From an uncultured Gammaproteobacteria bacterium (GTDB lineage Bacteria > Patescibacteriota > Microgenomatia > Levybacterales > UBA12049): a stretch of DNA of 64,000 nucleotides. The notes under the pieces were generated by a model. It saw only the letters and a list, made by a program, of their open reading frames with translations. It was not told where the DNA came from and searched no databases. Position 1 is the first letter of the stretch. Each line of letters begins with the position of its first letter. The position numbers and the translations under genes were made by a program. Shown here in pieces: positions 1 through 47,841 of this stretch. The stretch spans positions 1,121,887 through 1,185,886 of the forward strand of contig OZ246394.1 in the NCBI GenBank assembly GCA_965230895.1, given 5' to 3'.

Positions 1-3000
1 AGGGAAAGTCCGGCCATCCAGACGCCATCTCTTTGGAAGACATCGTTGGCTTTAATAATGATAGAATTGTTCAATTCTCCAGGGAGACTTAATGCGACCT
101 GCGCTTCACCTCGTTGAATTGCTTGCTGGACATCTAGCTTTGAGGGATTAAGACCCGATGCCTGACTGAATTCCATATTTTGTATTTGAAGCACTACGGC
201 ATCACCTTGGCGTAATGTGTGGAAACGTAATTCGTTTCGCTCCGAAGGACGGGTATCATAACCGTAATATTCTCTGTGATTTGTCTTTGTAGCCCATTCA
301 TTCCAGACTCCCGTCTCACCAGATACTGGGCGTTCAATTGTGCGCGTTTCAAATCGAGTTGCAATATTTTCTGTATTTACCAAGCTACTCCCTTGATCAT
401 ATTGCAATGTATCGCCCTGGAAAAATGCGTCATTTATAAGTACCTGGTCTGGCTTTGCATCAAGGACTAGATCAAATCTCCCATTATCTTCAACCCAATG
501 TGTTCCATCAGGGACATTTACTCGGTGCCCCATGATATCTGCTGCATGGGATGTCGTCGACGTAAATCCTTCGGTCGCTGGTCCAACCTCTCCTGCTCCA
601 AAAAATCGTTCAAGTGATGTCATCTGTGTTGGACGATCTGCCAACCCGATCGATTCAGCACCTCGATGTAAGCCTGCAAAAATCTCTTGCGTTACAGCAT
701 GGCCAATGACGCTTCCACCAGCCGCCATGACAAATGTCATTGAACCTTGTTTTGCTTGCGCGAGAACTCGCGCTCGTCTCATCGCACTGTCACGACTATC
801 GATAGACTCGTTTGACTCTATACTTGTGCTGAGTGCTGCTTGAAATTGGTTCTGAACTTCGGTACCGCGTTGAATATTTCGTTGCAATGCGTCAGAGAGA
901 GGATTAAGTATTTTATCTACAGAATCTCCTGGCTGGAAATCAACACCGAGCGAACGTGCATACGCTTGCATACCAGGAACATTATCTTGTGCATACTTGC
1001 GAAGCTCTGCAGTTGTTCGGGCTTTTAAAAGTTCGAGATCTGTCTTTTGAGCGTCCAATGATTGGTCTGTCGTTGTACGATATAATTCGACATTTGTGTT
1101 ATCATCCATCATTTGGCGGCGAACTTTACTATCTGCAAGTAATCCAAAAGCGTTATTTAGGATGTCATTGGTCACACGACCTGATTGAAGTTGCTTTCGT
1201 GCTTGCTCCAAAGGATCAAGGACGCCTGTTTTGATATCAAGCATTGGCAACTCGAGCTTCTTCATTTCATTGCGTCGTTTTGCTTCTTTATCAAAGGCAA
1301 CTCCTCGTGCAGCCTCACGACCATGCTGCTCATATTCCCTTGTGAATCGTGAACGTTCTTGCCCAGCCCGTACTGCACCAGCTACGGCAGAACCTCCTAA
1401 GATTGGTAAGAATATATTTCCACCTAAAGCTCCAGCTCGCTGCAGAGCATACAATCCCAAACCAGTAGCGAAGCCTGCAGTGTTATGGCCGCCGACAAAG
1501 CCAAGAGCCTTTAATCGCCCACTTGCGGAGTCAATTGCATCAAGATACGCGCCAGGCACAGGGAATTCTGGACCTCTATCTTGCTCTATCTTTTGGTAAA
1601 GATCCATAACACGCTGATTCGTAACGGAACGTGCATATTTTGCTTCGCGTTTTGTTTCTTGTACACTTCCTTGCTCACCAGCTTGCAATGTACCGACGTT
1701 AACTTTAAGCACCATTTGGTCAACATAGTTTTGGAGATTACCTTCTGATTGGAGATGGTTTTTGATAGACATTAACTGCGGCAAGAGAACATTTTCGACC
1801 ATAGGGACAATATTTGTTCCATAACTCATGGAGAGATCCAAATTACTGCGAACATCTTCTGGAAGATTATTTCTCCAATTTGTAAATTCTTTACTGAAGA
1901 ATTTCTCTTGAACAGCAGTACGAATTTCAAGAAGACGATCCTCGCTCAACGTCCCTCCATTTGCTAAGCCTTCTGTAAGCATCGGAGTAATTACTTCATT
2001 TTTGAAGAAGTCAGCGACCGGTCCTGTCATTACAATTTCTTGCGCACGCTTTTCGCCTACAGCAGTTCGTATTGCATCATCACTAAACTCAGTACCAAGC
2101 CTTCGCGCCAAACCTTCTCCTGCTTTAAAATCACCTGTGAGCACATCTTTATATGATTGGACGAGTTCTGGGTTTGCTGCGACAAAAGCTTGTACTCCTG
2201 GCTCACCTGAACTACGAGCATCATAAGCGCTGCGGAGCGTCCGAACAATTTCAACTTCTTGTGCAGCCAGCTCACGTTGATTCCGTCCAGCAAGTTCTCG
2301 CAAGTTTTTTATTTTGTTTTTGCCTCGCTCCCAACGACTCATATCATCGGTTTGATTCTCATTGATCTTATCGCGTGCTGAAGCGACTCTATCTTTCATT
2401 TTTTCCCGACGGTTCATCCCATCTCTTCGAGCATCTCTATCCGCTTTTTCTTGATCTCTGGCTGCAGTAATAGTTTCCTGAGCTGCATTGCGTATATTTC
2501 GTAAGAACTCATACGGCAAAGACTTCATTTGCACACCAGCTTCAGCCAAAAGCTGGTGCGATTGATCTTTTTCTTTTACATAGGTGTTCAGACTATGCAC
2601 GCCATATTTCCACCAACGAGGAATTGCTTGCTTAAATGATTGCTTCAGTTGATCGATTTTAGTGGAGTCTTCACCTTCAGCTTTGCCTGCCCACTTTTCC
2701 TTGCCTTCAGTCATGCGAGCTCGAGCAGTCATACGCGCTTCTTGCTCGACAACTTCTTGCTCTGTCTGACCTTCTTTTCCGATTCTATGCTTTGCCGCTG
2801 CAACTGAGAACTCAACACTCGCTAATTCTCGAAGAACTTCTTCAGGATCACGAGTGTCCGCATCTTTTGGAAGACTAGGCGTTGGTTGTTCTTCAGAATG
2901 CTTTTGTGGTTCTCTTTTTTCCGGTGCAGGACCATCGTGTGTGCCACGATCTTTAGTATCCACTGGAGCAGGACGAGGTGCAGATGTCCCCTCTGTAGTC

Positions 3001-3026
3001 GTTGGTGCTGGTTTAAATTCCGCCAT
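1..3026 (-). CDS. Giant hypothetical protein, 5' part only (>1008 aa in window; 3' end runs off window start)
   Basis: My own translation of the minus strand shows an uninterrupted frame from ATG at 3026 (preceded by AAAGGA 6 nt upstream and an in-frame TAG at 3084-3086) down to position 1. It is absent from the ORF track only because there is no stop codon in the window. The plus-strand small ORFs at 276-3152 are antisense shadows. The product has Gly-rich hydrophobic segments (e.g. FVGGHNTAGFATGLGLYALQRAGALGGNIFLPILGGSAVAGAV) and charged helical stretches. GC is visibly higher than in the rest of the window. Confidence 0.7.
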   Translation of the reverse strand, partial: MAEFKPAPTTTEGTSAPRPAPVDTKDRGTHDGPAPEKREPQKHSEEQPTPSLPKDADTRDPEEVLRELASVEFSVAAAKHRIGKEGQTEQEVVEQEARMTARARMTEGKEKWAGKAEGEDSTKIDQLKQSFKQAIPRWWKYGVHSLNTYVKEKDQSHQLLAEAGVQMKSLPYEFLRNIRNAAQETITAARDQEKADRDARRDGMNRREKMKDRVASARDKINENQTDDMSRWERGKNKIKNLRELAGRNQRELAAQEVEIVRTLRSAYDARSSGEPGVQAFVAANPELVQSYKDVLTGDFKAGEGLARRLGTEFSDDAIRTAVGEKRAQEIVMTGPVADFFKNEVITPMLTEGLANGGTLSEDRLLEIRTAVQEKFFSKEFTNWRNNLPEDVRSNLDLSMSYGTNIVPMVENVLLPQLMSIKNHLQSEGNLQNYVDQMVLKVNVGTLQAGEQGSVQETKREAKYARSVTNQRVMDLYQKIEQDRGPEFPVPGAYLDAIDSASGRLKALGFVGGHNTAGFATGLGLYALQRAGALGGNIFLPILGGSAVAGAVRAGQERSRFTREYEQHGREAARGVAFDKEAKRRNEMKKLELPMLDIKTGVLDPLEQARKQLQSGRVTNDILNNAFGLLADSKVRRQMMDDNTNVELYRTTTDQSLDAQKTDLELLKARTTAELRKYAQDNVPGMQAYARSLGVDFQPGDSVDKILNPLSDALQRNIQRGTEVQNQFQAALSTSIESNESIDSRDSAMRRARVLAQAKQGSMTFVMAAGGSVIGHAVTQEIFAGLHRGAESIGLADRPTQMTSLERFFGAGEVGPATEGFTSTTSHAADIMGHRVNVPDGTHWVEDNGRFDLVLDAKPDQVLINDAFFQGDTLQYDQGSSLVNTENIATRFETRTIERPVSGETGVWNEWATKTNHREYYGYDTRPSERNELRFHTLRQGDAVVLQIQNMEFSQASGLNPSKLDVQQAIQRGEAQVALSLPGELNNSIIIKANDVFQRDGVWMAGLS

Positions 3027-3177
3027 ACATTGTCCTTTCTTAGAGTTTGCAAAAATAGCAGCATATGTGCCGCCTCTTTGCCTCTATCCATTTATTATAC
3101 ATACTCTCATATAAGACAACAACGAATTTTTGAGAAAATAAGCACCTTGTAATGAACGTAAAAGGTAGATGTAAGGA

Positions 3178-3537
3178 TTAGTTTGAGGAATCAGCTGGAG
3201 TACTGAGATATACACCTTGAAATTCAATTAACACATCCGTCATAAACTCTGTAAAGTTAGCAATATGATCTACTGCAAACTGTTGCAGTTCTGCTTGCGA
3301 AGTATTTTGTTTCAACAAATTTTCAAACTCTGTAACATCTTCATCTGAAAATGCAGCAATAACCCGAGCCATGATAAAGTCATTGAGTCTTATTTGCAAA
3401 TCCTTTCGCAGTTCTTCACGAACCGAGTCATCCATATCGGGATAATTTTTCTTGTCGATGAGATCGTCTATGTATTGATTAATATTTTGCTGGTCCATGG
3501 ATATATTTACTATAGAGTGCAACTTCGGAGATGTCAA
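3178..3537 (-). CDS. Small acidic hypothetical protein (119 aa)
   Basis: Intact ORF lying between the PP2C-domain gene (17-nt gap) and the giant gene, on the same strand. It is Asp/Glu-rich and has no recognisable motif. Confidence 0.45.
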   Translation of the reverse strand: MTSPKLHSIVNISMDQQNINQYIDDLIDKKNYPDMDDSVREELRKDLQIRLNDFIMARVIAAFSDEDVTEFENLLKQNTSQAELQQFAVDHIANFTEFMTDVLIEFQGVYLSTPADSSN

Positions 3538-3554
3538 TCATATGAGAAGTGCTA

Positions 3555-5753
3555 TTAGGAGATAGGCTCATATACGAAAGACGGAAAAGCCTGTGTAACA
3601 TCATCTTCTCCCTTTTCATAAAAAAATTGTACAAGCGCTCGTGTATTTTCGGGCTTCTTACTCTCGTGCTCTCGAAAAGCATCTTTCCAAGCAGTTTTAC
3701 CTTCCTCGTCAAACCCGTTTATACTCAAATATGCATCCATACTATCAACGGAATCTACCTCAAAAGTTGCAGCGGCTAATTCATTTGCGTATCCTATGTA
3801 AATATTACTCTGCACGTCGCCTGCCTGCTCAAGCTGTTGCATCTCTTGCTCTATCTTTGTACGTCTTTCTATCGTTAACCTACTTTTTCGAGCACGCATC
3901 ATATTTTTATAGAGCACGTCGACATCTACTTGTTGAAGAATATCACTGTTATCCACATAGGTAATAAATTGCTGTTCAATTGGAGTTATTCGTCGACCAA
4001 TCTTTGCTTCCACTGCTGCAATAAGTTGTTTACTTGCAAGTATGTACTCCAAGTTTTGGCCAAAGAGCGTATTACTTGCTTTTGCAGCATCAAGTGCTGC
4101 AGATGGCTTCTTATCAGGAATATCTGCTGAGATATCAATCACTTCAGCTGTCATATCGTCTTTCTTTGCACGGACATCGCTACTTAACCTTGATCTAGCT
4201 TGAGCAGCTTCGATCAGTTTTGAAACAGCCTGAGACGCATTTTCTCCAGAGGCAAGAAGAGATTCTATAGCACTATCCGTGAGATTATCATGGATCCCAT
4301 CTGAAGTTATAAGATACCGATCGTCTTCTTCAACAGCATGCACTGTTAAAGAAGGCTCGATATATTGGATTCCTAGTGCCTGTCCTACTTCATTCCTTGT
4401 ATGGAAAGCATTCTTTTCCGGACGACTTAAAGCGCGAAAGTCATCTGCTGTATCAAGCGCTGCGAGCTTTCTCTGACGGGCCCATTGCTCATTTGGATCA
4501 ACAAAAGGACGCGGGTCATCAAGCGTTAGAACCTCGAGCTTTCCATCCCGGAGACGATAGAGTCGAGTATCACCGATATTAACATGAATTAGCTGCTTTT
4601 TCCCATCATTTCCCTCATAGATGTGGCTCAATGAGAGAGTCGTTAATCCCTTACCCTGTGTCGTTTCCAAAACCATCTCATTACATCCAATTGAGATGCG
4701 CATGAGGAAATCTGAAACTTCTTCAAGCGTTGCACCGTCAGGGATATACTTCACTGCTTCGGCGAGATAGTCTTTCGCATTTTGGACGGCCTTATCAGCC
4801 TCATCGCTTCCGCCTACACCATCAAGCACTCCAAACGACCGACTATCCATATCAAAGAGTAATCGATCTTGATGCGGTTTGCCTTTCTCATTCTTAACTG
4901 TCTCTCCTGCTGCAATGTCACCATACGATACCTTTTCTTCAGTCTCGCTTGGCGTTGTCGTTTCGATCGGAGCAGGTGTAGTTTCTAAAACTGTTACACC
5001 TAACTTATGGGCAAGAGCATCCAGACGTGTTCTTTCAGTTGCTGAAGGTTTGCGCTGTATCCCAGACTGTATTTTTGTAGCAATTTTTGCTTTCACATCT
5101 TCTTTTTGTGACAAAATTGCTCGTGCAACAGCAAAATCAGCTACTAATTCATCAGCATTTTTATCAGTACCGAAAATAGCCAACATTGGCTTGATCGCAT
5201 CCAATCTATTTTCTAATCGAGCTATATCGACGGAACCATCAGCTCTTGTGCATCCATCTGAGATATCTTCAATGAACCGATTAATATTACTGCCCTTTTC
5301 GGAGACATACTTCTGCCTGAATGTTTCCACTTGTGCATAGAGTCCCTGATCATTCATGTTATTATCGGAGACATCCAAGCCAATAGCTCCCAATGTCATT
5401 CGGCGCTCCCCTCGTATATGCGTATCTACCGCCGGATCTTGAAAAAACTCTTGCATTGAATCGTAAAAATCCATATTCCATTCTTTATTGCGGACATCAA
5501 AATCACGGTTATCATTTTTATCAAATTCATGCCGACTTTCTAATGAAACCTTATTTGCAGCGGTTAATGCTGTATGAAGTGCATCAGGAGTTTTTTGAGA
5601 GAGCGTATCGCGTTGCTCATCAGACATACTATGCGCCTCATGCCGCACAAAAGAAGTTTCGACCGCTGCTGCTGTAACATGTGCTATTGCTGGGGTAACT
5701 TGGACACGACTTTCTGATTCACGATTATGGGGACGCTCTGTATGTTCTCTCAT
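3555..5753 (-). CDS. PP2C-family Ser/Thr phosphatase-domain protein (732 aa) with uncharacterised N- and C-terminal regions
   Basis: The central region carries the PP2C signature blocks: FGVLDGVGGSDEADKA (the DGHGG-like metal-binding motif), IGDTRLYRL (GDSR-like), and YLITSDGIHDNLTD (the DG..D C-terminal metal motif). About 290 aa N-terminal and about 240 aa C-terminal have no identifiable motifs. Confidence 0.6.
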   Translation of the reverse strand: MREHTERPHNRESESRVQVTPAIAHVTAAAVETSFVRHEAHSMSDEQRDTLSQKTPDALHTALTAANKVSLESRHEFDKNDNRDFDVRNKEWNMDFYDSMQEFFQDPAVDTHIRGERRMTLGAIGLDVSDNNMNDQGLYAQVETFRQKYVSEKGSNINRFIEDISDGCTRADGSVDIARLENRLDAIKPMLAIFGTDKNADELVADFAVARAILSQKEDVKAKIATKIQSGIQRKPSATERTRLDALAHKLGVTVLETTPAPIETTTPSETEEKVSYGDIAAGETVKNEKGKPHQDRLLFDMDSRSFGVLDGVGGSDEADKAVQNAKDYLAEAVKYIPDGATLEEVSDFLMRISIGCNEMVLETTQGKGLTTLSLSHIYEGNDGKKQLIHVNIGDTRLYRLRDGKLEVLTLDDPRPFVDPNEQWARQRKLAALDTADDFRALSRPEKNAFHTRNEVGQALGIQYIEPSLTVHAVEEDDRYLITSDGIHDNLTDSAIESLLASGENASQAVSKLIEAAQARSRLSSDVRAKKDDMTAEVIDISADIPDKKPSAALDAAKASNTLFGQNLEYILASKQLIAAVEAKIGRRITPIEQQFITYVDNSDILQQVDVDVLYKNMMRARKSRLTIERRTKIEQEMQQLEQAGDVQSNIYIGYANELAAATFEVDSVDSMDAYLSINGFDEEGKTAWKDAFREHESKKPENTRALVQFFYEKGEDDVTQAFPSFVYEPIS

Positions 5754-5820
5754 ATATTCAGTATAGCAAAATGTGATCTAGCACACAGAAAACTGCTGGG
5801 ATTTATGCTATAAATAATCA

Positions 5821-7002
5821 ATGAAGAAATTTTATCAATTCATTACTGCATTTTTCTTTATCCCGCTTCTCCTCGCTTTTCCATTTGCTCAACAAACCCA
5901 GGCTGCAGAATTTCGTGCAGGAGATGAGGTGCGGATCAATGCAGATGAACAAAATCTTAATAATCTTTACCTCTTTGGTGGAAATATAACTTTAGACGCT
6001 CCGGTCGCAAATGAATTGACGACAGCAGGTGGGGATTTAAATCTTAATAGTGCTGTTGAAGGAAGCGCTCTAATAGGTGGAGGAAATATCACCATACGAG
6101 GACCAATTGGCAATAATGCTAGAATAGCGGGCGGAGATATTACGATTGATGCGCCAATAACAAACGACCTTGTTATTACAGGGGGCAATATAACAATCAC
6201 TAAGAACGCTTCAATTGGAGGAGATATCCTCTTTGCTGGGGGAAAGCTTACTGTAGACGGATCGGTTGCTGGCAAAATTCAGGCAAATGGTGGAGATATC
6301 GTAATTAATAGTACAGTCGATGGAGATGTTTCAGGGAATATAGAGAAGTTAATACTTGGTCCTGCAGCAAATATTTCTGGCAATCTTTCATACAAATCAC
6401 CGGAGCAGGCAAAAATTGAACAAGGGGCAACTATTTCTGGGCAAACGAATTACCAGCCTGAACATAACGACCAAGACCGCGAAAAGAGTGCAGCGGGATT
6501 CTTTGCAGGGGCCGCATTCTATAAGTTGATTGCAGATATAATTATTTGTCTCCTTTTCGTGTACTTCCTCAAAGGCTCAATCATAGCTATTATCAATAGA
6601 ATGAGATCCTCACCAGTAAAAAGTGGTGCTGTAGGGTTTGCATTCATTATCCTTGTACCGATCGCCGGTTTTCTCCTGTTCCTTTTACTTTTCCTCGGAG
6701 TCGTAACCATGTTGAGTTATGCTCTATTCTGGCTTATTAGCATATTCATTGCGCAGCTCTTTCTTGGCTGGGCACTTATGCATTGGCTTCAAAGAAGTAA
6801 TAAAGCAGAGTATATTCTCGATTGGAAAGCGGCTATTGCAGGACCAATTATTGTGTTTATTTTAATGTTTATTCCGGTCTTTGGATGGTTGGCATTTGCT
6901 GTAGTTTTCTTAATTGCACTTGGAGCAATGCTTGGAGAATTGATAACTCTTATTTCTACGCAAAAGCAAATAACCACGACCAAACCTTCACGAAAGAAGT
7001 AA
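5821..7002 (+). CDS. Membrane protein with a bactofilin-like beta-helical repeat domain (393 aa)
   Basis: The N-terminal hydrophobic signal/anchor is followed by a region of about 170 aa of imperfect repeats (GGNITI, GGDITIDAP, GGNITITK, GGDILFAGG, NGGDIVINST, SGNIEKLIL) that resemble the alternating G-D/N-I pattern of the bactofilin (DUF583) beta-helix. The C-terminal half has about 4 predicted TM helices. Confidence 0.5.
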   Translation: MKKFYQFITAFFFIPLLLAFPFAQQTQAAEFRAGDEVRINADEQNLNNLYLFGGNITLDAPVANELTTAGGDLNLNSAVEGSALIGGGNITIRGPIGNNARIAGGDITIDAPITNDLVITGGNITITKNASIGGDILFAGGKLTVDGSVAGKIQANGGDIVINSTVDGDVSGNIEKLILGPAANISGNLSYKSPEQAKIEQGATISGQTNYQPEHNDQDREKSAAGFFAGAAFYKLIADIIICLLFVYFLKGSIIAIINRMRSSPVKSGAVGFAFIILVPIAGFLLFLLLFLGVVTMLSYALFWLISIFIAQLFLGWALMHWLQRSNKAEYILDWKAAIAGPIIVFILMFIPVFGWLAFAVVFLIALGAMLGELITLISTQKQITTTKPSRKK

Positions 7003-7061
7003 AAGAGATTGGGATTGCTTGAAAGGAGTTGCAATATTTTTGTACTGTAAATGTACAAATA

Positions 7062-7544
7062 TTAACGCTTTGGTGATTGCTTCTTTCGTCGAGCTTTACC
7101 GCCGGTACCGACAGCACGTCGTTCACGGACACGAGCATCTCGTGACAAGAAGCCTTTTTTCTTAAGAAGTGCACGGTATTCTTCTGGATTCAGCTTGTTC
7201 AATGCATTTGCAATACCTGCAACTGCTGCTTGTAGTTGTCCTGAAGGTCCACCGCCTGCAACTTTGATAGTGAATGCAAAATTCTTTTGATGCGCGTTTG
7301 TAACACGAAGTGGTTCTGTATAAAGATGGCGACTGACATCACCTGAGAAGTATTGATCAATTGGCTTTTCATTAACCAACATATCACCTTTTTTCACTGA
7401 AAGTTCGCCCCAAGTAAGTTCTGCTTTTACATTTTCATAGAGTCGGACTCGAGCAACTGATTCTTTTCGTCGGCCAACTGCAAAAGTATAATCTTTTCGA
7501 GCTGTTTTATTTCTTTTAATTGGTTGTTGTACTTCTTCTGCCAT
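7062..7544 (-). CDS. rpsI: 30S ribosomal protein S9
   Basis: GRRKESVARVRL ... C-terminal GGKARRKKQSPKR is typical of S9. Confidence 0.93.
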   Translation of the reverse strand: MAEEVQQPIKRNKTARKDYTFAVGRRKESVARVRLYENVKAELTWGELSVKKGDMLVNEKPIDQYFSGDVSRHLYTEPLRVTNAHQKNFAFTIKVAGGGPSGQLQAAVAGIANALNKLNPEEYRALLKKKGFLSRDARVRERRAVGTGGKARRKKQSPKR

Positions 7545-14968: not shown

Positions 14969-15412
14969 CTAAACACTTTCGACCGATCCCCCGGCCTTTT
15001 GAATCTTTTCTGCTGCGTTCTTAGAAACTGGTAATTTAACTGTCAATGCAACATCAAGTGTACCATTTCCAAGGATTTTGATCTTTCGGTGTTTCCCAAG
15101 TTCATCTCTAACTAATCCTTGTTTTGTAAGTGATGCGACATCCACAACTGCACCTTTTGCAAAAACATTCAATGCATCAACATTAAGAATATATGCTTTT
15201 TCTTGCAATGAAGCGTTTCGACTTTTACCTCGAAGGAATGGCAAACGCTTTGTCAAAGGTAATGCTCCACCTTCAAATCGAAGTGGAACACTATTTCGAG
15301 CTTTTTGCCCTTTTTGTCCTCGTCCTGAAGTTTTACCACGACCTGATCCGTGCCCCAAACCTACACGTTTTTTACTTTTTGATTTTATCTGCTTTAATTC
15401 TGTTAAGTTCAT
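14969..15412 (-). CDS. rplO: 50S ribosomal protein L15
   Basis: GLGHGSGRGKTSGRGQKGQKAR Gly/Arg-rich L15 N-terminus. Confidence 0.93.
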   Translation of the reverse strand: MNLTELKQIKSKSKKRVGLGHGSGRGKTSGRGQKGQKARNSVPLRFEGGALPLTKRLPFLRGKSRNASLQEKAYILNVDALNVFAKGAVVDVASLTKQGLVRDELGKHRKIKILGNGTLDVALTVKLPVSKNAAEKIQKAGGSVESV

Positions 15413-15414
15413 AA

Positions 15415-15942
15415 TTAACCTTTCTTAACGACAGCTACTCGATCTTTTTCTTTTGCAACCTGCTCACTGACTTTTCTCAATGCTTCAAGTGTCGCATAGA
15501 TATTACTAATCTTATTTGTTGTTCCAAGCATCTTTGAAGAGATATTTTGGATACCTGCTGCTGATACAACACTTCGAACAGCTCCACCTGCGATAATACC
15601 ACTTCCTGGAGGTGCTGGCTTTAGCATAATCTTTGCTGCACCAATCTTCACATCGATTCTGATAGGGATGGTACCTTCGACCAATGGGATTTCGATTAAA
15701 CCTTTCTTTGCTTTACTAATACCTTTTCGGATAGCACTTGAGACATCTGGAGCTTTACCTAAACCTACTCCAACTCGACCTTTTTTATCACCAACAACTG
15801 TAAGCGCTGAGAATCCAACTTTATTTCCACCTTTTGTTTTCTTTGAAACACGGTTAATTTGTACAACATTCTCTTCAAATTCACTCGGAGTTTGATTAAA
15901 TTGTCTTCTTTGATTGTTATTTTGATTTTGATTAAATGCCAT
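15415..15942 (-). CDS. rpsE: 30S ribosomal protein S5 (Asn/Gln-rich N-terminal tail)
   Basis: S5 dsRBD and C-terminal domains (VVQINRVSKKTKGGNKVGFSALTVVGDKKGRVGVGLGKA). It is directly followed by rplO with a 2-nt gap, so there is no room for rpmD (L30). Confidence 0.93.
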   Translation of the reverse strand: MAFNQNQNNNQRRQFNQTPSEFEENVVQINRVSKKTKGGNKVGFSALTVVGDKKGRVGVGLGKAPDVSSAIRKGISKAKKGLIEIPLVEGTIPIRIDVKIGAAKIMLKPAPPGSGIIAGGAVRSVVSAAGIQNISSKMLGTTNKISNIYATLEALRKVSEQVAKEKDRVAVVKKG

Positions 15943-18967: not shown

Positions 18968-19213
18968 CTATTTTTTAGGCGCTTCTGCTACCTCCTTTTT
19001 TTCAACTTTTGCTGCCGCTGTTACTTTTTCAGCGAGAATTGTCTTCATAACAGCAATCTCTTTTCGAGTGTTTGTCATACTTCGAGTATTTTTTAATTTA
19101 CTCTGCACATTGTCCATTCGAATCTGAGAAAGTGTATTATACGATTCTTTGAGCAATTTTTCCAATTCTTCAGTTGTTTTACTATGTAATTCTTTTCTAT
19201 CGTTAATTTTCAT
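18968..19213 (-). CDS. rpmC: 50S ribosomal protein L29
   Basis: 81 aa helical protein, in its canonical position between rplP and rpsQ. Confidence 0.85.
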   Translation of the reverse strand: MKINDRKELHSKTTEELEKLLKESYNTLSQIRMDNVQSKLKNTRSMTNTRKEIAVMKTILAEKVTAAAKVEKKEVAEAPKK

Positions 19214-19214
19214 G

Positions 19215-19628
19215 TTACATTTCTCCCTTTACTAAGATCTTGCTTTTCACTGAAAGCTTATGTGATGCCAAACGTAGTGCTTCTTTTGCAATTACTGCTG
19301 ATACCCCTGTCATTTCGAACATAATTCGTCCAGGTTTTACAACAGCGACATATTCTTTAATATCACCTTTTCCTCCACCCATACGAACTTCAGCTGGCTT
19401 CTTTGTAATAGGCTTATCTGGGAAAATAGTAATCCAAGTCTTACCACCACGTTGTGTGTAATTACTAATCGCACGTCGTGCTGATTCAATCTGGCGACTA
19501 CTAATCATCCCAAGCTCCATTGCCTGAAGTCCAAAATCACCATACGAAAGCTTTGTTCCTCGTGTTGCAGCACCTTTTGCATTTCCTCGCTGCATCTTTC
19601 GATACTTTTGTCTCTTCGGCATTAACAT
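19215..19628 (-). CDS. rplP: 50S ribosomal protein L16
   Basis: [15 protein letters not shown]... L16. Confidence 0.93.
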
Positions 19629-19629
19629 A

Positions 19630-20283
19630 TTACAGTGCGTCTCCTCCCTCAGGTCTATTAATCCAAACTTTAATACCGATATACCCCTTCTTTGTTAATG
19701 CTGGGTATTGAGCATAACTGATATCTTCACGAATTGTAGACAACGGAACTGTTCCCAAATGGATCTTTTCTCGTCGTGCAATTTCTGCTCCATTAATACG
19801 TCCAGTCAAAAGAATCTTGACTCCAAGTGCTCCTGAACCCATAACTCGCTCTGCAGTTGAATTAAGAATTCTCTTGAATGGAAGTCTTCGAACCAATTGA
19901 TCTGCAATATTGTTCGCAACTAAGTATGCATTCAAGTTTGGTTCTTTCACTGGTTCAACTCGGATATCCATTTTTGGAGCTTTTCCACCACGCTGCTTTG
20001 TAAAGAATACTGTAATTGCTTTCTTTAATTCTTCAAGTCCACTTCCACCTCGACCAATAACAATACCTGGTCGTGAAACATGGATGATGATCTTCAAACT
20101 GTTAATTGATCGCTCAATTTCAACACTTGCGATACCTGCTGATCGCAATCGTTCCATAAGCATCTTTCGAAGACCAAAATCTTCGAGCAAGACATCCTTG
20201 TATTGTCGTTCGTTGAACCATCGACTACTCCAAGTATGTACTGCACCTAATCTAATAACGTGTGGATTAACTTTTTGTCCCAT
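19630..20283 (-). CDS. rpsC: 30S ribosomal protein S3
   Basis: [13 protein letters not shown]... KH domain. Confidence 0.93.
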
Positions 20284-25642: not shown

Positions 25643-25852
25643 AGTGTTTTAAAAATAAAATCTCTCAATTCATTTATTGAGAGTAAATGTATGATACTAC
25701 AAAAAACGTGCCCCGTCAATAGGTTATTGTAAGAAAAACAGACTAAAACTCATGTATTTTGTTACTTTCCGTTGTTTTAGTATATTTATATTAAGGTATA
25801 TATAAGATATATATGCTTGACATTAGATTTTTTAAAGTGCAACAATAAAGAT

Positions 25853-28144
25853 ATGAATCCTGACCAAGGCACTACGTCACAAACACAACCTCTACCAGCA
25901 CATGATACTCTAAGTGCACAGTCAAGAAAACCATTGCCAAAGAAGTTTTTTATTATTGGGGGCCTTTTATTATTGCTCATCATTGCAATTGCATTGACAT
26001 TATTATTTGGGAAAAGTGAGAAAACTACCTCGAAAGATAATACTTCAGCGGTAGCTCCAACTTCAGGATTTGAAGAGATTAAAGAAACTGCGGAAAATTC
26101 ACCAACTGCAAAAGCTAGCTCGCATGTTGTAGTTTATGGATCATGGACAGGACAATCATCTTTAATAAAAGCAATTGATACAAATACCTCCAAAACTCAG
26201 TTAATCGCTACCCTTCCTATGGCAATTAAAAAAGTCGCTGTTCTTAACAACCAATCTCTCCTTTATATTGGGGACGTTGATAAAAAGGATCATGGGAAAA
26301 ACGTCACTATATACGATATAAAAGAGAAGAAGGTAGTTTCTACTATCTCAGCTTCTGAAGGGTACGGAATTGATGAATATACATTATCTCCAGATAAGAA
26401 GTATCTTGCGCTATGGGAGGTTCAATTTGCACAAGGATCAGAAATATTACAAGGTGGAAAGTCCAGAGTTTATACAGTTGCATTATCGAACCCAACAGTT
26501 AAGAATCTTATATATGATGAGCAAGCATTACAACCAATTCACTATCCACGAGCAATTCTTAATGATGGAACAGTATTTATGGATATGTTTATGCCAAATG
26601 ATCCACTTGGTGGAGCAGGATGGGCATACGGCATGAGTATGGCTTCGTTTGATGGGACAAATAAACGCGATATTGATTCATTAAAGTCAGGAACATATGG
26701 AAATCAGCCAGCATTATCACAGGAAGGTCGATATCTGCTCTTAACAGGATATGATGGAAAGTATGGAGATGGCACAGGCGTTAAGAATGGGATTCGCCAA
26801 GCAATCCTTACATCAAATACTGTTGATCTTGTTGATACAAAAACACTTCAGAGGTATAAATTACCAAATCTTTCAAACAATGATAGCTATGCATCTGCGC
26901 ATTGGGACTTTGTGACAGGCAAGATTATACTTTCAGTAGTAGGCGCAACAGCGGATAAAACAGGTCTTTATGCCTATGATATTGCATCAAAATCTCTTCA
27001 AAAGATTTCTGTTCCCTCGATAAATAACACTGAGTATATGCAAATCTCTAATCTACCAAATAACCAATTATTGATAGGCACATTTGAAGAAAATTCATCA
27101 AATCTTGGTAATTTAGGAGCAAATTATGAATATGCTTATACAAAACTAATGACATTGGATACTAAGACCTCTAAAAGCAAACCAATCTCTCTTGAAGATA
27201 CGTATGCACAATATATAACAGTACTTCCAGCTGATTATTTCAATAATGTCCTCGGGATCAAAACAATAGCCCAAGCAAATCCTCAGCCTACATTTGTAGA
27301 CCAGTATTCTGATCAAAATGCTACAAAAGAACGGTTGCAACTTTATACATTCTTCTTGAAATATGATTTGCAGCCTGTTCGCCTAAAGCAACAAAGCACG
27401 CCTGTTTCAACAACTCCAGTTAATTTATCAAAGATTACGCTGACGCCAAACACAACCTATCCACCACATAACGACGATAATATGCCAAAATGTAATGACG
27501 TTACAGCAAAAGTTTGTGCAGAAAAAGGTCAAGGTCCAGGAACAAAGGACTACACAATGTGTAAAGGTATGTACAAAGCACAAAATATGGAAAGAACGTG
27601 TGATGACTCTCCCCTTTACCTTTATGGTACACCTGGACAAAAAGTCCAAGTAACGATAAACACACCTGTTTATAACGCAATCCCATCCTATGATAGGGGA
27701 TACGAAATTACATTGATGCAACATGGGAAAATGCTTATCAATAATAACTCGTATGACAGAATTTCTTATGACTACTCATCAAATTTGAAAATAAGAAAAG
27801 CTCCAAAAGAGGGAAGTGTAACAACAAAGGAGAATTTGCCTTCCCTACTTAAAGATTATGCAAGAAAGCTTGGGCTCAATGATAAAGAGACTAAAGATTT
27901 AATCTCTGCTGGTTTACAGAAAGTCAAAACACCATACGCATTCGTCTCTTTCTATGATCATGAGACATCACATCGTATATTGCCAATCACATTCAATCCT
28001 CAGCCAGATAATTACTTAAATGTTGTATTCTATTTCAAGCAGCTCCAACAAAAGCCGAACCTAACCCCAGTCCCTCCTACATTCCCAGATCCGGTTAAAA
28101 GAGATGGATTTACTGCAATCGAAGTAAGTGAAGTTGTTGAGTGA
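25853..28144 (+). CDS. Membrane-anchored (N-terminal TM) extracytoplasmic protein, paralog A, with an extra Cys-containing C-terminal region
   Basis: The N-terminal polar tail is followed by a TM helix (FFIIGGLLLLLIIAIALTLLF) and then a domain of about 420 aa that is colinear and clearly homologous with the downstream gene. Shared blocks include YGSWTGQ, SPDKKY..WEVQF, LLGGKSR.Y, PTVKN..YDE, WAYGMS, FDGTNKRDI, GTYG.QPALS, LGNLG and QYITVLP. An SPDxKY-type motif suggests a TolB-like beta-propeller, which is a guess. The track start at 25817 is TTG. The ATG at 25853 (MNPDQG) matches the MDPAQP start of the paralog. Confidence 0.6.
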   Translation: MNPDQGTTSQTQPLPAHDTLSAQSRKPLPKKFFIIGGLLLLLIIAIALTLLFGKSEKTTSKDNTSAVAPTSGFEEIKETAENSPTAKASSHVVVYGSWTGQSSLIKAIDTNTSKTQLIATLPMAIKKVAVLNNQSLLYIGDVDKKDHGKNVTIYDIKEKKVVSTISASEGYGIDEYTLSPDKKYLALWEVQFAQGSEILQGGKSRVYTVALSNPTVKNLIYDEQALQPIHYPRAILNDGTVFMDMFMPNDPLGGAGWAYGMSMASFDGTNKRDIDSLKSGTYGNQPALSQEGRYLLLTGYDGKYGDGTGVKNGIRQAILTSNTVDLVDTKTLQRYKLPNLSNNDSYASAHWDFVTGKIILSVVGATADKTGLYAYDIASKSLQKISVPSINNTEYMQISNLPNNQLLIGTFEENSSNLGNLGANYEYAYTKLMTLDTKTSKSKPISLEDTYAQYITVLPADYFNNVLGIKTIAQANPQPTFVDQYSDQNATKERLQLYTFFLKYDLQPVRLKQQSTPVSTTPVNLSKITLTPNTTYPPHNDDNMPKCNDVTAKVCAEKGQGPGTKDYTMCKGMYKAQNMERTCDDSPLYLYGTPGQKVQVTINTPVYNAIPSYDRGYEITLMQHGKMLINNNSYDRISYDYSSNLKIRKAPKEGSVTTKENLPSLLKDYARKLGLNDKETKDLISAGLQKVKTPYAFVSFYDHETSHRILPITFNPQPDNYLNVVFYFKQLQQKPNLTPVPPTFPDPVKRDGFTAIEVSEVVE

Positions 28145-28186: not shown

Positions 28187-29635
28187 ATGGATCCTGCCCA
28201 ACCAAATCCCAATCAACCATTACAGCAGCCACAACAACCGCCACAGTCAGAGCAAGCTGCTACGCCCGTTGCACCAACACAGCCACCAGCACCTGACGCA
28301 ACAAAGCCTTTCCCAAAAAAACTCGCGCTAATAGCAGGCGGAGGTGCGCTCATTCTTCTCATTATTATTGCAGTTATATTTGGCCTGAGTGGAAGAAAAT
28401 CTTCTAACGGAACTGTAATGCCCACTCCAACGAAAGCTCAATCTGGGGGAGAAGTTAAAGCAACGCCTGTAACAAGAGATCCTGATGATCCACAAAAGAT
28501 GATGATCTATGGAACATGGACAGGGCAAACAACTGTAGTCCGGGGAGTTGATATTGGCAGCTCCGAGAGTCTTAATATTGCTACGCTTCCACTTGAGGTA
28601 AAGAAGATTTCAGTTCTCTCCTCGCAGAACCTGATGTACATAGATCAAGTTGACACAAAAGAGTTAGGACGTAGGATAACTATTTATAATCTTAAGACCA
28701 AAACTTCAAGTCAAAGCATTCCGGCCTCTTCAGGATATGGGATAGAAGATTATGCTTTATCTCCGGATAAAAAGTATATTACTATTTGGGAAGTCCAATT
28801 TGGATCGACAACACAATCTCTTCTAGGTGGAAAATCAAGAATCTATGCAATTGATTTATCAAGACCTACAGTAAAAAACATTCTTTATGATGAAACAGTA
28901 AGTACAACTATTCCGATACACTACCCAATAGGTATTTTGAATAATGGTACTGTCTTCGCAGATACTCTTATTCCGAGTGGCACAAATGGCAGTAAAGATT
29001 GGGCATATGGTATGAGTGTTGTTGACTTTGACGGTACAAATAAGCGAGATATTGAATCGATGAAGAAAGGAACCTATGGAACCCAACCAGCACTTTCCCC
29101 TGACGGCAAATACCTCCTATTTGCAGGATATGATGGATCAAAAGGTAACGATCCTGCAGGGAGACAAGCAATAATGACACCAAACACGATTGATGTTCTC
29201 AATACTGAATCACTTAAACGATTCACACTACCAAACCTTTCAAGTACAAATACCTATCCAACGGTTTCATGGGAATCTCAAACAGGAAGAATCTTTTTTG
29301 CTCAATTTTCGCTCGATACTCAGAAAACAAATTCATTCTCATATGATCTGGGCAAGCAAAAACCAACTGAGATCGTTATTCCAATTGAAGGCGATTCGAG
29401 ATATGGATATGTAGAACAACTAAATGATGCAAAAGCACTTATCGGAGCACAAGATCTCGATCCATCTAACCTAGGCAACTTAGGAAATGCTCCTGCTTAT
29501 GCCTACACACAACTAGCACTTTTAGACGTGCAGACTTCAAAAGTTAACTTTGTCTCAGTACAGGATGCATTTGTACAGTATATAACTGTATTACCTACCA
29601 CCTACTTTAAATCCACACTTGGTGAGGCTCAATAG
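28187..29635 (+). CDS. Membrane-anchored extracytoplasmic protein, paralog B (482 aa)
   Basis: The Pro/Gln-rich N-terminal tail is followed by a TM helix (LALIAGGGALILLIIIAVIFGL), then a domain homologous to paralog A. Confidence 0.6.
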   Translation: MDPAQPNPNQPLQQPQQPPQSEQAATPVAPTQPPAPDATKPFPKKLALIAGGGALILLIIIAVIFGLSGRKSSNGTVMPTPTKAQSGGEVKATPVTRDPDDPQKMMIYGTWTGQTTVVRGVDIGSSESLNIATLPLEVKKISVLSSQNLMYIDQVDTKELGRRITIYNLKTKTSSQSIPASSGYGIEDYALSPDKKYITIWEVQFGSTTQSLLGGKSRIYAIDLSRPTVKNILYDETVSTTIPIHYPIGILNNGTVFADTLIPSGTNGSKDWAYGMSVVDFDGTNKRDIESMKKGTYGTQPALSPDGKYLLFAGYDGSKGNDPAGRQAIMTPNTIDVLNTESLKRFTLPNLSSTNTYPTVSWESQTGRIFFAQFSLDTQKTNSFSYDLGKQKPTEIVIPIEGDSRYGYVEQLNDAKALIGAQDLDPSNLGNLGNAPAYAYTQLALLDVQTSKVNFVSVQDAFVQYITVLPTTYFKSTLGEAQ

Positions 29636-39945: not shown

Positions 39946-41613
39946 ATGCATCTGATCCTTAAGAATAAATATACGTATTTCGTTTCTATACTCACTATTT
40001 TAGGCTTTTTTCTCCATTTTTATAATCTTAATTGGGGTGCTCCATATTATTTTCATCCTGATGAAAGAAATGTCGCAAGTGCAATATCGCAACTTCGATT
40101 CCCCGAACAATTAAATCCTAATTTTTTTGCATACGGTTCGTTTCCTATTTATGTTGTTTTCTTCACGGGGCTTCTTTTTAATACAATTACAAATAATCCA
40201 CTCCATGGGCAAATTCCTTTTGATCAAGCGATCATTATCGGGAGGATGTATTCTGCGATTTTCGCAACAGCGCTTATACCATTGCTTTATATTTTGGGTA
40301 CAAAACTTCATGATAAACGGACTGGCGTAATTGCGGCAACATTTACCACATTAAGTACAGGATTTATCCAATTTGCACATTTCGGAACATTTGAGCTTTG
40401 GCTTACATTCTTTACTACCGTTCTCTTCTGGTTATGTCTAAAACTTTTAGAAAGAAAAACCATCAGGTACGTACTTCTTATTGGATTAGTTTGTGGGATA
40501 CTTGTTGCAACAAAAATTTCGCATCTTACTATTCTTCCGTTGCCACTTTTAGCATTAATAGCACTCCATATTAAAGGAAAGGGCAAGCATCATCACAAAT
40601 TCACTCGGCTATTGTTCTTTGTCCAAGAACTTGCACTTTTAGGAATTACTACTTTACTCATTTATTTTGCAACCAATCCATATGTGCTACTTGATTTCAA
40701 TGCCTTTTTTGCAAGCATGAACTATGAATCAAGTGTTGGATTAAATACGCTTCCTGTATTTTATACTCAAGGATTTTACGAGACGATACCTGTCTTTTAT
40801 CAATTTCTTAATATTTATCCATTCCTCCTTAACCCGATTATGACTATTCTTTTTGTCTTTACTTTTATATTCATCCTTGTCTGGGCAATTCGTTACAAAA
40901 ATTTACAGTATCTTTTGCTGCTGGGATTTTTCATTATTCTTTTTGTTTCTCAATCTTTTCTTTTTATTAAATGGGCTCGGTATATGATACCAACACTCCC
41001 CTTTCTCTATCTCATTATTGCCTTAACACTTTCGCATGTGCTTTTCAGGAAATCGTATGTTGCAAATGTCGCGAAGCATAGTCTAATGCGCGTAATAGTT
41101 ATTTCAATTTTTATTGTTAACACAATTTTTTCTCTTTCTTATTTTGTGACAGCCTTCGTCCAACCGGATACAAGAATCTCAGCTGCCACTTTTTCACGTC
41201 AGGCAATCCCCGCTACTGCAGCTGTTTTGACTGAAACATATGATATTGGAATAACACCTTTCAATAGTATCTTTACAAAGATAGTTATTTTTAACACCTA
41301 TGATCTTGATAGTGACTCACTTGAATATAACGAGACAACTTTGAATGAAATTGCAAAAAATTCAGATTATATAATCATCCCAAGTCAACGCGTACTGCAA
41401 ACACGTATCAATAACCCACAGCGTTACCCTATTGGCAATAAATTTTATAGTTCGTTAATGCATGGCAAATTCGGATATACCAAGGTTTATGAGACACCAT
41501 GTGACACAATCTGTAAAATTGCCTACTTAGGGGATCCTATCTATCACTTTGAACAGACGATTAATGTCTTTGACCGTCCAACTGTATTTATTTTCAAGAA
41601 TAATACTAAATAA
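39946..41613 (+). CDS. GT-C fold glycosyltransferase (family 39/83-like, polyprenyl-phosphate-sugar dependent), paralog 1
   Basis: More than 10 TM segments. An N-terminal loop carries the FHPDERNV motif (a DE in the first loop is typical of PMT/ArnT-like GT-C enzymes). It is homologous to the next gene. Confidence 0.6.
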   Translation: MHLILKNKYTYFVSILTILGFFLHFYNLNWGAPYYFHPDERNVASAISQLRFPEQLNPNFFAYGSFPIYVVFFTGLLFNTITNNPLHGQIPFDQAIIIGRMYSAIFATALIPLLYILGTKLHDKRTGVIAATFTTLSTGFIQFAHFGTFELWLTFFTTVLFWLCLKLLERKTIRYVLLIGLVCGILVATKISHLTILPLPLLALIALHIKGKGKHHHKFTRLLFFVQELALLGITTLLIYFATNPYVLLDFNAFFASMNYESSVGLNTLPVFYTQGFYETIPVFYQFLNIYPFLLNPIMTILFVFTFIFILVWAIRYKNLQYLLLLGFFIILFVSQSFLFIKWARYMIPTLPFLYLIIALTLSHVLFRKSYVANVAKHSLMRVIVISIFIVNTIFSLSYFVTAFVQPDTRISAATFSRQAIPATAAVLTETYDIGITPFNSIFTKIVIFNTYDLDSDSLEYNETTLNEIAKNSDYIIIPSQRVLQTRINNPQRYPIGNKFYSSLMHGKFGYTKVYETPCDTICKIAYLGDPIYHFEQTINVFDRPTVFIFKNNTK

Positions 41614-41615
41614 AA

Positions 41616-43310
41616 ATGTACAATAAACATATGTTGAAACAAAACTTACTTGCAAAAATTATCCTTCTTGGGATCGTACTCTTAGGTGGATTTTTGAGAT
41701 TTTATGATTTTGACTGGGATCAAGGACAACATCTCCATCCAGATGAAAGATTCTTAACAATGGTCGGGACCTCTATGATTATGCCAATTTCGTTTGCAGA
41801 TTATATGAATCCCGATACCTCGACGTTCAATCCCGCAAATATTGGTCATTCATTTTATGTTTATGGGACATTGCCAGTTGTCCTCACTAAGCTTATCGCA
41901 ATAAATCTAGGCTATGACAATTATGGGGATATCACGATTCTTGGACGATTATTTTCGGGCTTCGTAGATATACTGACAATTATTGTTATATATAAAATTA
42001 CTTCTTTACTTCAAAAACGGCATAAACTCCATCCGCATATCAAATATTGGGCTTCCTTTTTCTATGCCATTACTGTTTTACCGATACAACTCTCTCATTA
42101 TTTTGCAGTGGATACATTCCTCAATTTCTTTATGATAACTGCATTTTATCTTATGTTGCGTTTTAGTTATACAAAAAACCTAGCATTTGTAGCAGTAAGC
42201 GCAATTTTCTTTGGACTGGCTATTGGTTCAAAAATAAGTGCAATTTATATAGCGCCCCTGTTAGCATTCTTCTTAGTTAAAACATATATTCCCCATTTCC
42301 CAGTCCATAAAAAAGCTATTATCCACATCCTCTTATCTGGTTTCATTTTCAGTTTTACTGCATATTTAATTGGAAGATTAGCAGATCCTTACCTTTTTCA
42401 AACCGGAAATATTTTTGATCCGACAATAAGCAAACTCTTTCTTGATAACATCGATGCTTTAAAAAATTGGGGAAGCGCTGATGCATGGTTTCCACCAAGT
42501 GTCCAATGGATAAATAAAATACCAATTGTGTATCCACTGATAAATCTTGTACTTCTTGGCATAGGTGTTGGATATACGATTTTTCTTATCTGGGGTGCTA
42601 TCCAATTATTCAGGAGATATACTCATATTGATTTTATAGCAATTTTTTCTTGGACCCTATTCTTTTTTCTTTATCAAGGATTACAGTTTTCAACTACAAT
42701 GCGTTACTTCTTGCCACTCTATCCATTCTTAGCGTTGCTTGCTGCAATCGGTTTTTATGAACTTACGAAACATCGATCCAATGTCATTAGATTTATGTGC
42801 ATCATTTCTGTTGTACTTTGGACAATGTTTTTCTTTTCAATATATACTCTGCCACATACACGAAATACCGCAAGTATATGGATTTACGATCATATTCCAA
42901 ATGGACGTACACTGCTCAGTGAACATTGGGATGATAGCCTACCACTAGGTACAAATCCTCCATCACAAAAAACATATACACTTGAACAGCTTCCTGTATT
43001 TGATCCAGATACATCAGAAAAGTGGCAAAAAATGGATGAACTATTGGACAGGGGTGACTATCTAATACTCTCTTCAAATCGTGGTTGGGGCAGTATACCA
43101 ACAGTACCTGACAGATATCCTCAAACAACAAAGTACTACAAAGATTTATTAGGAGGAAATTCAAAGTATAAAAAAGTTGCAGAGTTTACATCCTATCCGT
43201 CACTTAACTATCTGGGTATTCCAATAAGTATTCCCGATGATTGGGCGGAGGAAGCTTTTACTGTCTATGATCATCCTAAAGTTATGATCTTTGAGAATAC
43301 AGAAAAATAA
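41616..43310 (+). CDS. GT-C fold glycosyltransferase, paralog 2
   Basis: LHPDERFLTMVG motif in the first loop, and the same multi-TM architecture. Confidence 0.6.
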   Translation: MYNKHMLKQNLLAKIILLGIVLLGGFLRFYDFDWDQGQHLHPDERFLTMVGTSMIMPISFADYMNPDTSTFNPANIGHSFYVYGTLPVVLTKLIAINLGYDNYGDITILGRLFSGFVDILTIIVIYKITSLLQKRHKLHPHIKYWASFFYAITVLPIQLSHYFAVDTFLNFFMITAFYLMLRFSYTKNLAFVAVSAIFFGLAIGSKISAIYIAPLLAFFLVKTYIPHFPVHKKAIIHILLSGFIFSFTAYLIGRLADPYLFQTGNIFDPTISKLFLDNIDALKNWGSADAWFPPSVQWINKIPIVYPLINLVLLGIGVGYTIFLIWGAIQLFRRYTHIDFIAIFSWTLFFFLYQGLQFSTTMRYFLPLYPFLALLAAIGFYELTKHRSNVIRFMCIISVVLWTMFFFSIYTLPHTRNTASIWIYDHIPNGRTLLSEHWDDSLPLGTNPPSQKTYTLEQLPVFDPDTSEKWQKMDELLDRGDYLILSSNRGWGSIPTVPDRYPQTTKYYKDLLGGNSKYKKVAEFTSYPSLNYLGIPISIPDDWAEEAFTVYDHPKVMIFENTEK

Positions 43311-43311
43311 C

Positions 43312-44445: not shown

Positions 44446-44501
44446 AAAAACCGCTTTTGCAAAGCAATACTGAGTGTTATACAATACATTATACTACTAG
44501 T

Positions 44502-45059: not shown

Positions 45060-45060
45060 T

Positions 45061-47337: not shown

Positions 47338-47348
47338 TTATTTGAAAT

Positions 47349-47840: not shown

Positions 47841-47841
47841 A

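Follow-up and report, generated by a model that had tools for sequence, protein, structure and literature searches.

A giant gene cut by a window edge encodes a putative membrane-tethered GT2 glycosyltransferase paired with a DUF5663 protein

Proteins of approximately 1250 amino acids (aa) from Patescibacteria (MSU76053.1, referred to as P0005) and from Moranbacteria (P0011) that carry a glycosyltransferase (GT) domain of family GT2 are the closest described relatives of the protein reported here, a giant protein of 2299 aa whose gene runs off the first base of the 64,000-nucleotide stretch of DNA analysed (contig OZ246394.1 of assembly GCA_965230895.1, positions 1,121,887 to 1,185,886; hereafter the window). 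The two have a collinear core in common, consisting of an N-terminal MT..KE...W motif, hydrophobic segments followed by RE...E..QH.RE, a second Gly-rich helix with QE, a beta domain (WYDNDT..NEL in the ~1250-aa proteins), RRPLE, YYGYG and the GT2 domain. The ~1250-aa proteins are 32-38% identical to the giant protein over its GT half, match the part encoded in the window by BLASTP (E 4e-7 and 7e-6 over aa 515-950), and are encoded downstream of the same DUF5663 gene. The giant protein differs from them in being almost twice as long: the helical region before a putative membrane hairpin is expanded, and the C-terminus is extended by about 700 residues (a Pro-rich linker and two domains, here called C1 and C2) that are missing from the core family.

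More distant likeness exists to GT-A/GT2 enzymes of solved structure. PcManGT (6yv7), the hyaluronan, chitin and cellulose synthases and K4CP are alike in their GT-A fold (Foldseek E 9e-10 to 1e-6) and in the presence of DxD and ED motifs, but the giant protein is only 10-17% identical to them and has about 1800 extra residues of uncharacterised modules. The processive synthases moreover possess a QxxRW motif and a multi-helix channel, both of which are absent from the giant protein. Very large bacterial proteins that join glycosyltransferase and methyltransferase-type domains have been described as 'Archaeovorins' in Omnitrophota (bioRxiv 10.1101/2023.11.21.568195); these have at least 7000 aa, contain GT5/GT1, hydrolases and peptidases, belong to another phylum, and show no detected homology to the giant protein. 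In the literature we found no description of the architecture of the giant protein, of its pairing with DUF5663 or of its link to PP2C-type phosphatases. Multi-domain proteins that contain GT2 are known in kind.

On the minus strand of the window, a single frame is open from an ATG at 3026-3024 through base 1, without a stop over 1008 codons (translation of 3152 to 1), just as the initial annotation had claimed for an uninterrupted frame of more than 1008 codons. Given a local stop-codon frequency of 0.0595, calculated from the local base composition, the probability of 1008 codons without a stop is 1.4e-27; the remaining five frames of positions 1-3026 contain 26-87 stops each, with a longest open run of 148 codons. 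The G+C content by codon position (0.605/0.433/0.298) matches that of the EF-G, RpoA and Clp ATPase genes of the same window. Over window positions 1-2000, the giant gene has the highest G+C content of the window (0.445, against 0.38 elsewhere). This excess sits in codon positions 1 and 2 and is due to a composition rich in Ala, Gly, Arg and Glu; the third position is ordinary, and the raised G+C content is therefore no sign of foreign origin. The frame is absent from the list of open reading frames (ORFs), which holds no minus-strand ORF over 1-3026, because it runs off the window edge and the listing rule omits ORFs that run off the end of the source. The suspicion that the edge had hidden it was thus correct, and the same rule conceals long genes in general. 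The plus-strand ORFs at 532-843 and 1231-1599 have the Ala/Ser/Pro-rich composition noted earlier, which fits their being antisense shadows of the giant gene.

Only the 5' part of the gene lies in the window (1..3026, minus strand; 1008 of 2299 codons, or 44%), and 3873 nt more extend beyond window position 1. Exact-DNA scans of two contig collections, one of genomes and one of metagenomes, gave no match to the window. Logan assemblies of the same organism were reached via exact-protein look-ups of neighbouring genes. One of the contigs obtained (L001) is identical to the window over 7374/7374 bases and lengthens the giant gene to 1728 aa; four more contigs from other runs show zero mismatches to it. 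A second contig of 23 kb (L006, from run SRR14271365), whose overlap of 17,002 bp with the window is free of mismatches, contains the complete gene at 307..7206, encoding 2299 aa followed by a stop. Altogether, base-for-base comparison of seven Logan contigs with the window or with L001 showed no mismatch. The same 2299-aa protein exists as P0165 with NCBI and Logan as sources, and the longest contig that carries it measures 1,610,123 bp. Public databases already contain the giant protein as a prediction, along with family members annotated as GT2. The sequence beyond window position 1 thus completes, without interruption, the single gene that had been proposed to be truncated by the edge.

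The initial annotation had also pointed to a possible sequencing error near a "run of 7 T" beside a string FFWSRRGW, and the presence of a T-run is all that speaks for a pseudogene or an assembly artefact such as a frameshift hidden at a homopolymer. The homopolymer is in fact a T6 run (window 605-600; cga ttt ttt gga, which reads ERFFGAG), and FFWSRRGW does not occur in the giant frame. There is no frameshift at this place: across the T-run, the window is identical base for base to L001 and L006, which are Logan assemblies of two different runs, residues conserved in orthologues are in frame on either side of it (E806 and F809; G833 and P839), and the completed gene has 2299 uninterrupted codons. 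We assign such an artefact a negligible probability. Window positions 1-3026 of the minus strand are the 5' part of an intact, expressed-looking gene of 6.9 kb.

Putative expression signals precede the gene, as announced by the initial annotation. A Shine-Dalgarno-like AAAGGA (3033..3038, minus strand) is located 6 nt before the ATG, and the choice of this start is backed by the conserved N-termini of the orthologues, in which M1 and E3 are invariant; an in-frame TAG occurs at 3086-3084, 19 codons 5' of the ATG. The spacer of about 150 nt that separates the giant gene from the DUF5663 gene holds a promoter-like element (3094..3122, minus strand) composed of a -35 box TTGTTG (3122-3117), a 17-nt spacer and the extended -10 box TGTATAAT (3101-3094); transcription is predicted to start about 7 nt downstream of this box. 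TTGTTG, the 17-nt spacing and TGTATAAT are invariant across three loci (ours and those on contigs L015 and L016), while the surrounding spacer has diverged, and this conservation amid divergence supports the earlier promoter call. The giant gene possesses a predicted, conserved promoter of its own. Between promoter and AAAGGA, the 5' leader contains a 7-bp hairpin followed by a T-run (3057..3074, minus strand), a terminator-like scan match that could represent an attenuator, a stabilising stem, or nothing. Hairpins also occupy this position in the leaders of L015 and L016, but they differ in sequence, and the three leaders provide no covariation support.

Pfam and NCBIfam searches with the full protein returned GT2 only. 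For the isolated segment aa 1203-1730, PF00535 scored 24.8 bits against a cutoff of 23.3. In NCBIfam, an EpsD-like entry matched with E 1.7e-5. Structure prediction with AlphaFold2 (AF2) is consistent with this assignment. The homologous GT module of a relative (fragment P0001, 50% identical) was modelled with a predicted local distance difference test score (pLDDT) of 81 and a predicted template modelling score of 0.82, and in the model made from the giant protein's own sequence, which covers the core (aa 480-1600), most blocks of the GT part reach a pLDDT of ~80-95. Foldseek with the P0001 model retrieved PcManGT (E 9e-10), followed by WrtF, the hyaluronan, chitin and cellulose synthases and K4CP; the model of aa 480-1600 retrieved the same list of GT-A GT2 enzymes. 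The DxD motif (D1354-A-D1356) and the ED motif (A-E1455-D1456, the AED of 1454-1456) are intact and kept in most relatives, D1356 being nearly invariant, and SNPRR (1485-1489) is conserved. Together, sequence and model point to a GT-A fold GT2 domain with intact catalytic motifs in the giant protein, at aa ~1180-1600.

We also considered a processive, membrane-embedded synthase of the BcsA, hyaluronan synthase, chitin synthase or NodC type. QxxRW is absent, with SNPRR in its place, and channel helices do not follow the GT domain. With QxxRW missing and its last hydrophobic segment ending at aa 786, the giant protein does not qualify as a processive synthase that forms a channel.

Relatives were collected by an exhaustive HMMER search of 1.84 billion representative proteins with the window-encoded part as query, which yielded 162 proteins at E<=1e-3 and 33 at E<=1e-30, with lengths of 1000-3200 aa. 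The best three (P0014, P0015 and P0016; 2140-2309 aa) are 63-73% identical over the window part and ~50-57% identical over the full length, and remain collinear to about aa 1600. A word-indexed protein search with the 1008-aa query gave no match, despite P0014 (73% identical) being a representative in that very collection, and with a 33-sequence alignment it recovered only the giant protein itself and three orthologues. Charged queries rich in low complexity seem to saturate the 8000-candidate list of this search, so that its null result alone would have mislabelled the protein as an orphan. The half of the protein beyond the window matches the ~1250-aa proteins, which are named 'glycosyltransferase family 2 protein [Patescibacteria group bacterium]' or assigned to Candidatus Moranbacteria, and relatives carry precomputed PF00535/PF13641 annotations. 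All homologues named by organism are from Patescibacteria or Moranbacteria.

The family is modular. An N-terminal helical module with hairpin (aa 60-800) is followed by the beta domain (826-1120), by the RPLE motif with the GT domain, and by C-terminal modules that vary and are interchangeable: FkbM methyltransferase, as in P0016, a protein-kinase-like domain, or C1/C2. P0068 carries beta domain, RPLE, GT2, protein kinase and PP2C in one chain with no hydrophobic segment between them, and across the family all hydrophobic segments precede the beta domain. The gene immediately upstream is likewise constant. In our locus it encodes a DUF5663-family protein of 106 aa (3178..3498, minus strand), and a DUF5663 gene occupies the same place in all seven relatives' loci inspected (L015, L016, L017, L019, L020, L021 and L022). 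Over its whole length the 106-aa protein can be aligned with DUF5663 proteins, at 69/65% identity for the copies of the orthologues and 26/30% for distant ones; in the Pfam search of this protein at E<=0.1, DUF5663 was not listed. A DUF5663 profile searched against the Protein Data Bank (PDB) gave chance-level matches only. In the three close orthologues, the DUF5663-giant gene pair directly follows rpsI. We define here, by a DUF5663 gene immediately upstream on the same strand and by a collinear core of hydrophobic hairpin with RE..QH.RE, beta domain, RPLE motif and GT2, an uncharacterised grouping of Patescibacteria proteins, the DUF5663-linked giant GT2 family, to which, from its sequence, the giant protein belongs.

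Along the giant protein, a Pro-rich, acidic tail (aa 1-60) is followed by a charged region of ~450 aa (aa 60-507) that is conserved among relatives and includes the MT..KE..W motif, with T106 and W139 invariant. Hydrophobic segments were located as Kyte-Doolittle 19-residue peaks. Two adjoining Gly/Ala-rich segments, with peaks of 1.1 and 1.5, form a putative membrane hairpin (aa 508-552; window 1371..1505, minus strand); the BLASTP alignments to the ~1250-aa family cover this region. Directly after the hairpin comes the family-conserved basic motif QERSRFTREYEQHGRE (R..QE....R.EQH.RE), in which E557 and H568 are invariant. The helical region behind it (aa 553-762; 741..1370, minus strand) is modelled as helices throughout, with a pLDDT of ~81-88 over most of aa ~600-720. 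A third hydrophobic helix, weak and Gly-rich (aa 763-786; 669..740, minus strand; Kyte-Doolittle 1.1), ends in an invariant QE (E781) and may be either a membrane span or an interfacial helix. The two Gly-rich hydrophobic strings quoted by the initial annotation do occur in the translation, and its description of long helical regions was upheld. Beyond aa 786 there is no hydrophobic segment, and the whole chain of 2299 aa contains two or three weak ones.

In the remaining core, an all-beta domain (aa ~826-1120) comes first; the window edge falls within it, so that its first two thirds (aa 826-1008) are encoded at 3..551 of the minus strand. In the AF2 core model it is made of strands only, at a pLDDT of 50-82; it includes the motif YYGYDT..(S)ERNEL, bears a strong excess of acidic residues (net -19), is the module most widely shared among relatives, and has no Pfam or PDB sequence match. 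Next follow WPRRPLEAG (aa 1137-1145; the (P)RRPLE motif), a Tyr/Gly-rich linker GYYGYYG (aa ~1163-1170), the GT module, a Pro-rich linker (aa 1600-1650), and the domains C1 (aa ~1730-2090) and C2 (aa ~2120-2299), each without a match and common to a subset of relatives. In an alignment of 13 sequences (A1), E557, H568, R1139, P1141, L1142, E1143, N1282 and D1332 are invariant. The 1008 aa encoded in the window have no Pfam, NCBIfam or PDB match, and their PHROG matches are at chance level only; the C-terminal 569 aa have no Pfam or PDB match. Profile searches of the PDB with whole-family alignments gave nothing beyond weak GT2 matches, and no paralogue of any module was found in the window.

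With confidence slightly above even, we predict that the giant protein is a membrane-tethered, cytoplasm-facing glycosyltransferase scaffold for the assembly of envelope glycoconjugates. The hairpin would anchor it at the cytoplasmic face of the membrane, where the GT2 domain would use a nucleotide sugar as donor to glycosylate an acceptor, be it a protein or a lipid-linked glycan of the envelope. Service as scaffold or spacer and the binding of DUF5663 would fall to the non-catalytic modules, and the adjacent PP2C-like protein would control the activity via Ser/Thr phosphorylation. Cytoplasmic placement is proposed because no hydrophobic segment interrupts the chain from the beta domain through GT2 to the C-terminal modules, and because GT2 and the domains fused to it in relatives need nucleotide-diphosphate sugars, ATP or S-adenosylmethionine (SAM).

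Several observations count against this prediction. PF00535 scores 22.1-22.6 bits on the 1728-aa and full-length proteins, just below the cutoff of 23.3. About 80% of the protein (N-terminal modules, beta domain, C1 and C2) matches nothing known. None of the three closest orthologous loci contains the PP2C-like neighbour, and the link to phospho-regulation comes from fusions in 4 of 163 relatives plus one adjacency. The hydrophobic segments have low pLDDT in the AF2 model. Finally, the third hydrophobic helix is preceded by basic and followed by acidic charge; were this helix to span the membrane, the resulting three spans and the charge pattern would place the protein from the beta domain onward outside the cell.

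The last point leads to a different reading, in which a cell-surface giant protein with three spans displays its beta domain and everything downstream on the outside for attachment to host cells. Membrane proteomes of CPR (Candidate Phyla Radiation) bacteria are reportedly enriched in giant proteins thought to be active in host recognition (PMC8080830), a view into which such a protein fits. The charge distribution around the third helix and the net charge of -19 of the beta domain agree with it, and an all-beta domain could be an adhesin-like module. Yet the giant protein has no recognisable signal peptide, its N-terminal 500 aa are charged, and the Pfam search revealed no domain of the adhesin, Ig, FN3 or repeat kind. 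Moreover, no hydrophobic segment separates the beta domain from GT2 or, in relatives, from kinase, PP2C and SAM-methyltransferase domains, which depend on cofactors of the cytoplasm. Because of this cofactor argument, we weight surface display lower than the cytoplasm-facing scaffold and regard it as unlikely.

The candidate phosphatase is the neighbouring protein of 732 aa (3555..5753, minus strand), whose central Ser/Thr phosphatase-like domain spans aa ~285-545. It matches the NCBIfam entry Stp1/IreP with E 7.4e-18, at 64.9 bits far below the equivalog cutoff of 230, and its flanks of ~280 aa (N-terminal) and ~190 aa (C-terminal) match nothing. It also matches PHROG 5650 and 17277 at E~1e-10, and no Pfam family at E<=0.001. 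Four members of the giant family carry a homologue of the PP2C-like domain fused at the C-terminus (E 9e-16 to 3e-23), and Pfam confirms PP2C in two of these four. From these sequence relations, the 732-aa protein is likely a functional partner of the giant protein. A described parallel is the envelope control of monoderm bacteria by Stp1/PstP-type PP2C phosphatases and Hanks kinases: the neighbour has a PP2C-like domain, and in some relatives the GT core is joined to PP2C and a protein kinase in one chain. The neighbour differs from those systems by its score far below the equivalog cutoff and by flanks that total ~470 uncharacterised residues, and no kinase gene was identified beside our giant gene.

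The segment between RPLE and the GT domain suggests a further alternative, drawn by analogy, namely a self-priming or length-measuring assembly of glycans in which GT2 glycosylates the adjacent Tyr/Gly segment, or in which the helices serve as a ruler and the C-terminal modules terminate the chain. Glycogenin glycosylates itself and WbdD terminates a glycan chain. The Tyr/Gly segment (GYYGYYG; YYGYG in relatives) is conserved at this place and flexible in the model, and the interchangeability of the modules after GT2 would suit a terminating role. Against this, the comparison is one of analogy: glycogenin belongs to GT8 and not GT2, WbdD was not homologous to the giant protein by any search run, and genes for glycan export did not turn up in the flanking sequence retrieved for the loci inspected. 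We hold this alternative to be quite unlikely. Similarly doubtful is its most far-reaching form, in which DUF5663 and the giant protein would together form a new type of machine for assembling glycans, specific to CPR bacteria and regulated by phosphorylation, with its own primer (the Tyr/Gly segment) or ruler (the helical modules), and in which swappable C-terminal modules would finish the product. Such a machine, if real, would build a major envelope glycoconjugate in organisms without most classical envelope pathways.

With about 80% of its sequence uncharacterised, the giant protein is of moderate interest for the cell-surface biology of CPR bacteria, and unsurprising in kind. These bacteria, also called Patescibacteria, make up a large share of bacterial diversity and have tiny genomes. 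Here a genome of 1.6 Mb devotes 6.9 kb to this single gene, and everything that the window encodes of its product lacks a described family or structure. The motifs RE..QH.RE, RPLE, YYGYG, DAD, ED and SNPRR, together with the DUF5663 partner and the putative link to Ser/Thr phospho-signalling, offer handles on how an episymbiont builds its cell surface.

The chromosomal setting of the gene bears on the analogy drawn in the initial annotation to tape-measure, translocon or polymorphic-toxin proteins. The window is chromosomal and contains, on the same strand as the giant gene, a SecY-Adk-Cmk-Map-IF1-L36-S13-S11-S4-RpoA-L17-L13-S9 cluster. Three genes, encoding proteins of 393 aa (plus strand), 732 aa and 106 aa, lie between rpsI and the giant gene, and the position beside the ribosomal-protein operon and rpsI is conserved in the three closest orthologues. 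Only size, helical regions and Gly-rich hydrophobic segments would suggest a giant protein of a mobile element. Apart from this conserved position among ribosomal and housekeeping neighbours, PHROG matches were at chance level for the window part and absent for the full protein, no tblastn match was found in 50,697 phage records and none in IMG/VR contigs, the window contains no tRNA or Rfam match, no integrase was found among the ORFs scanned, and the protein carries a GT2 domain instead. The analogy is unsupported, and we consider this reading very unlikely.

Each of the three candidates was also rejected individually. For a phage tail tape-measure protein, there was neither homology to that family nor a phage tail gene module. 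Against a translocon, the 2299 aa contain only two or three weak hydrophobic segments. For a polymorphic toxin, Pfam showed no toxin, RHS, repeat or trafficking domain in the full protein, and the gene downstream of the giant gene is a convergent ORF of 271 aa.

On contig L006, at 19149-20122 (corresponding to window ~14969-15942), the gene for ribosomal protein S5 is directly followed by that for L15, and no gene for L30 separates the two; CPR bacteria typically lack L30. From this arrangement and the named homologues we infer a CPR origin of the window, which the two observations fit without proving it.

The 393-aa protein encoded at 5821..7002 (plus strand) is a membrane protein with bactofilin-like repeats (DUF8173, by precomputed annotation); the Pfam Bactofilin profile scores 27.4 bits against a cutoff of 27.9. 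It has a signal-peptide-like N-terminal hydrophobic segment, Gly/Asn/Ile-rich repeats and three strong transmembrane segments. On L015 and L016, a DUF8173 gene and then a Gmad2-domain gene are found just downstream of the giant gene. The DUF8173 gene may belong to the same functional neighbourhood as the giant gene.

Genes with bAvd/23S_rRNA_IVP domains, which we take to be accessory proteins of diversity-generating retroelements, occur within a few kb of the giant/GT2 gene on L015 (19039-19341), L016 (17063-17437 and 18571-18900) and L022 (656-994); none was seen beside our giant gene. Three other large ORFs of the window had no Pfam match at E<=1e-5 (59022-62276, 1084 aa; 25817-28144, 775 aa; 28187-29635, 482 aa; all plus strand), and by phmmer they are unrelated to the giant protein. 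Elsewhere in the window, positions 39946-49047 form an envelope-glycan neighbourhood with tandem PMT_2 (GT-C) paralogues (39946-41613 and 41616-43310), a GT4 gene (43312-44484), a gene for a 758-aa DUF2298 protein (45061-47337), a NUDIX gene and a LytR_cpsA_psr gene (47842-49047).

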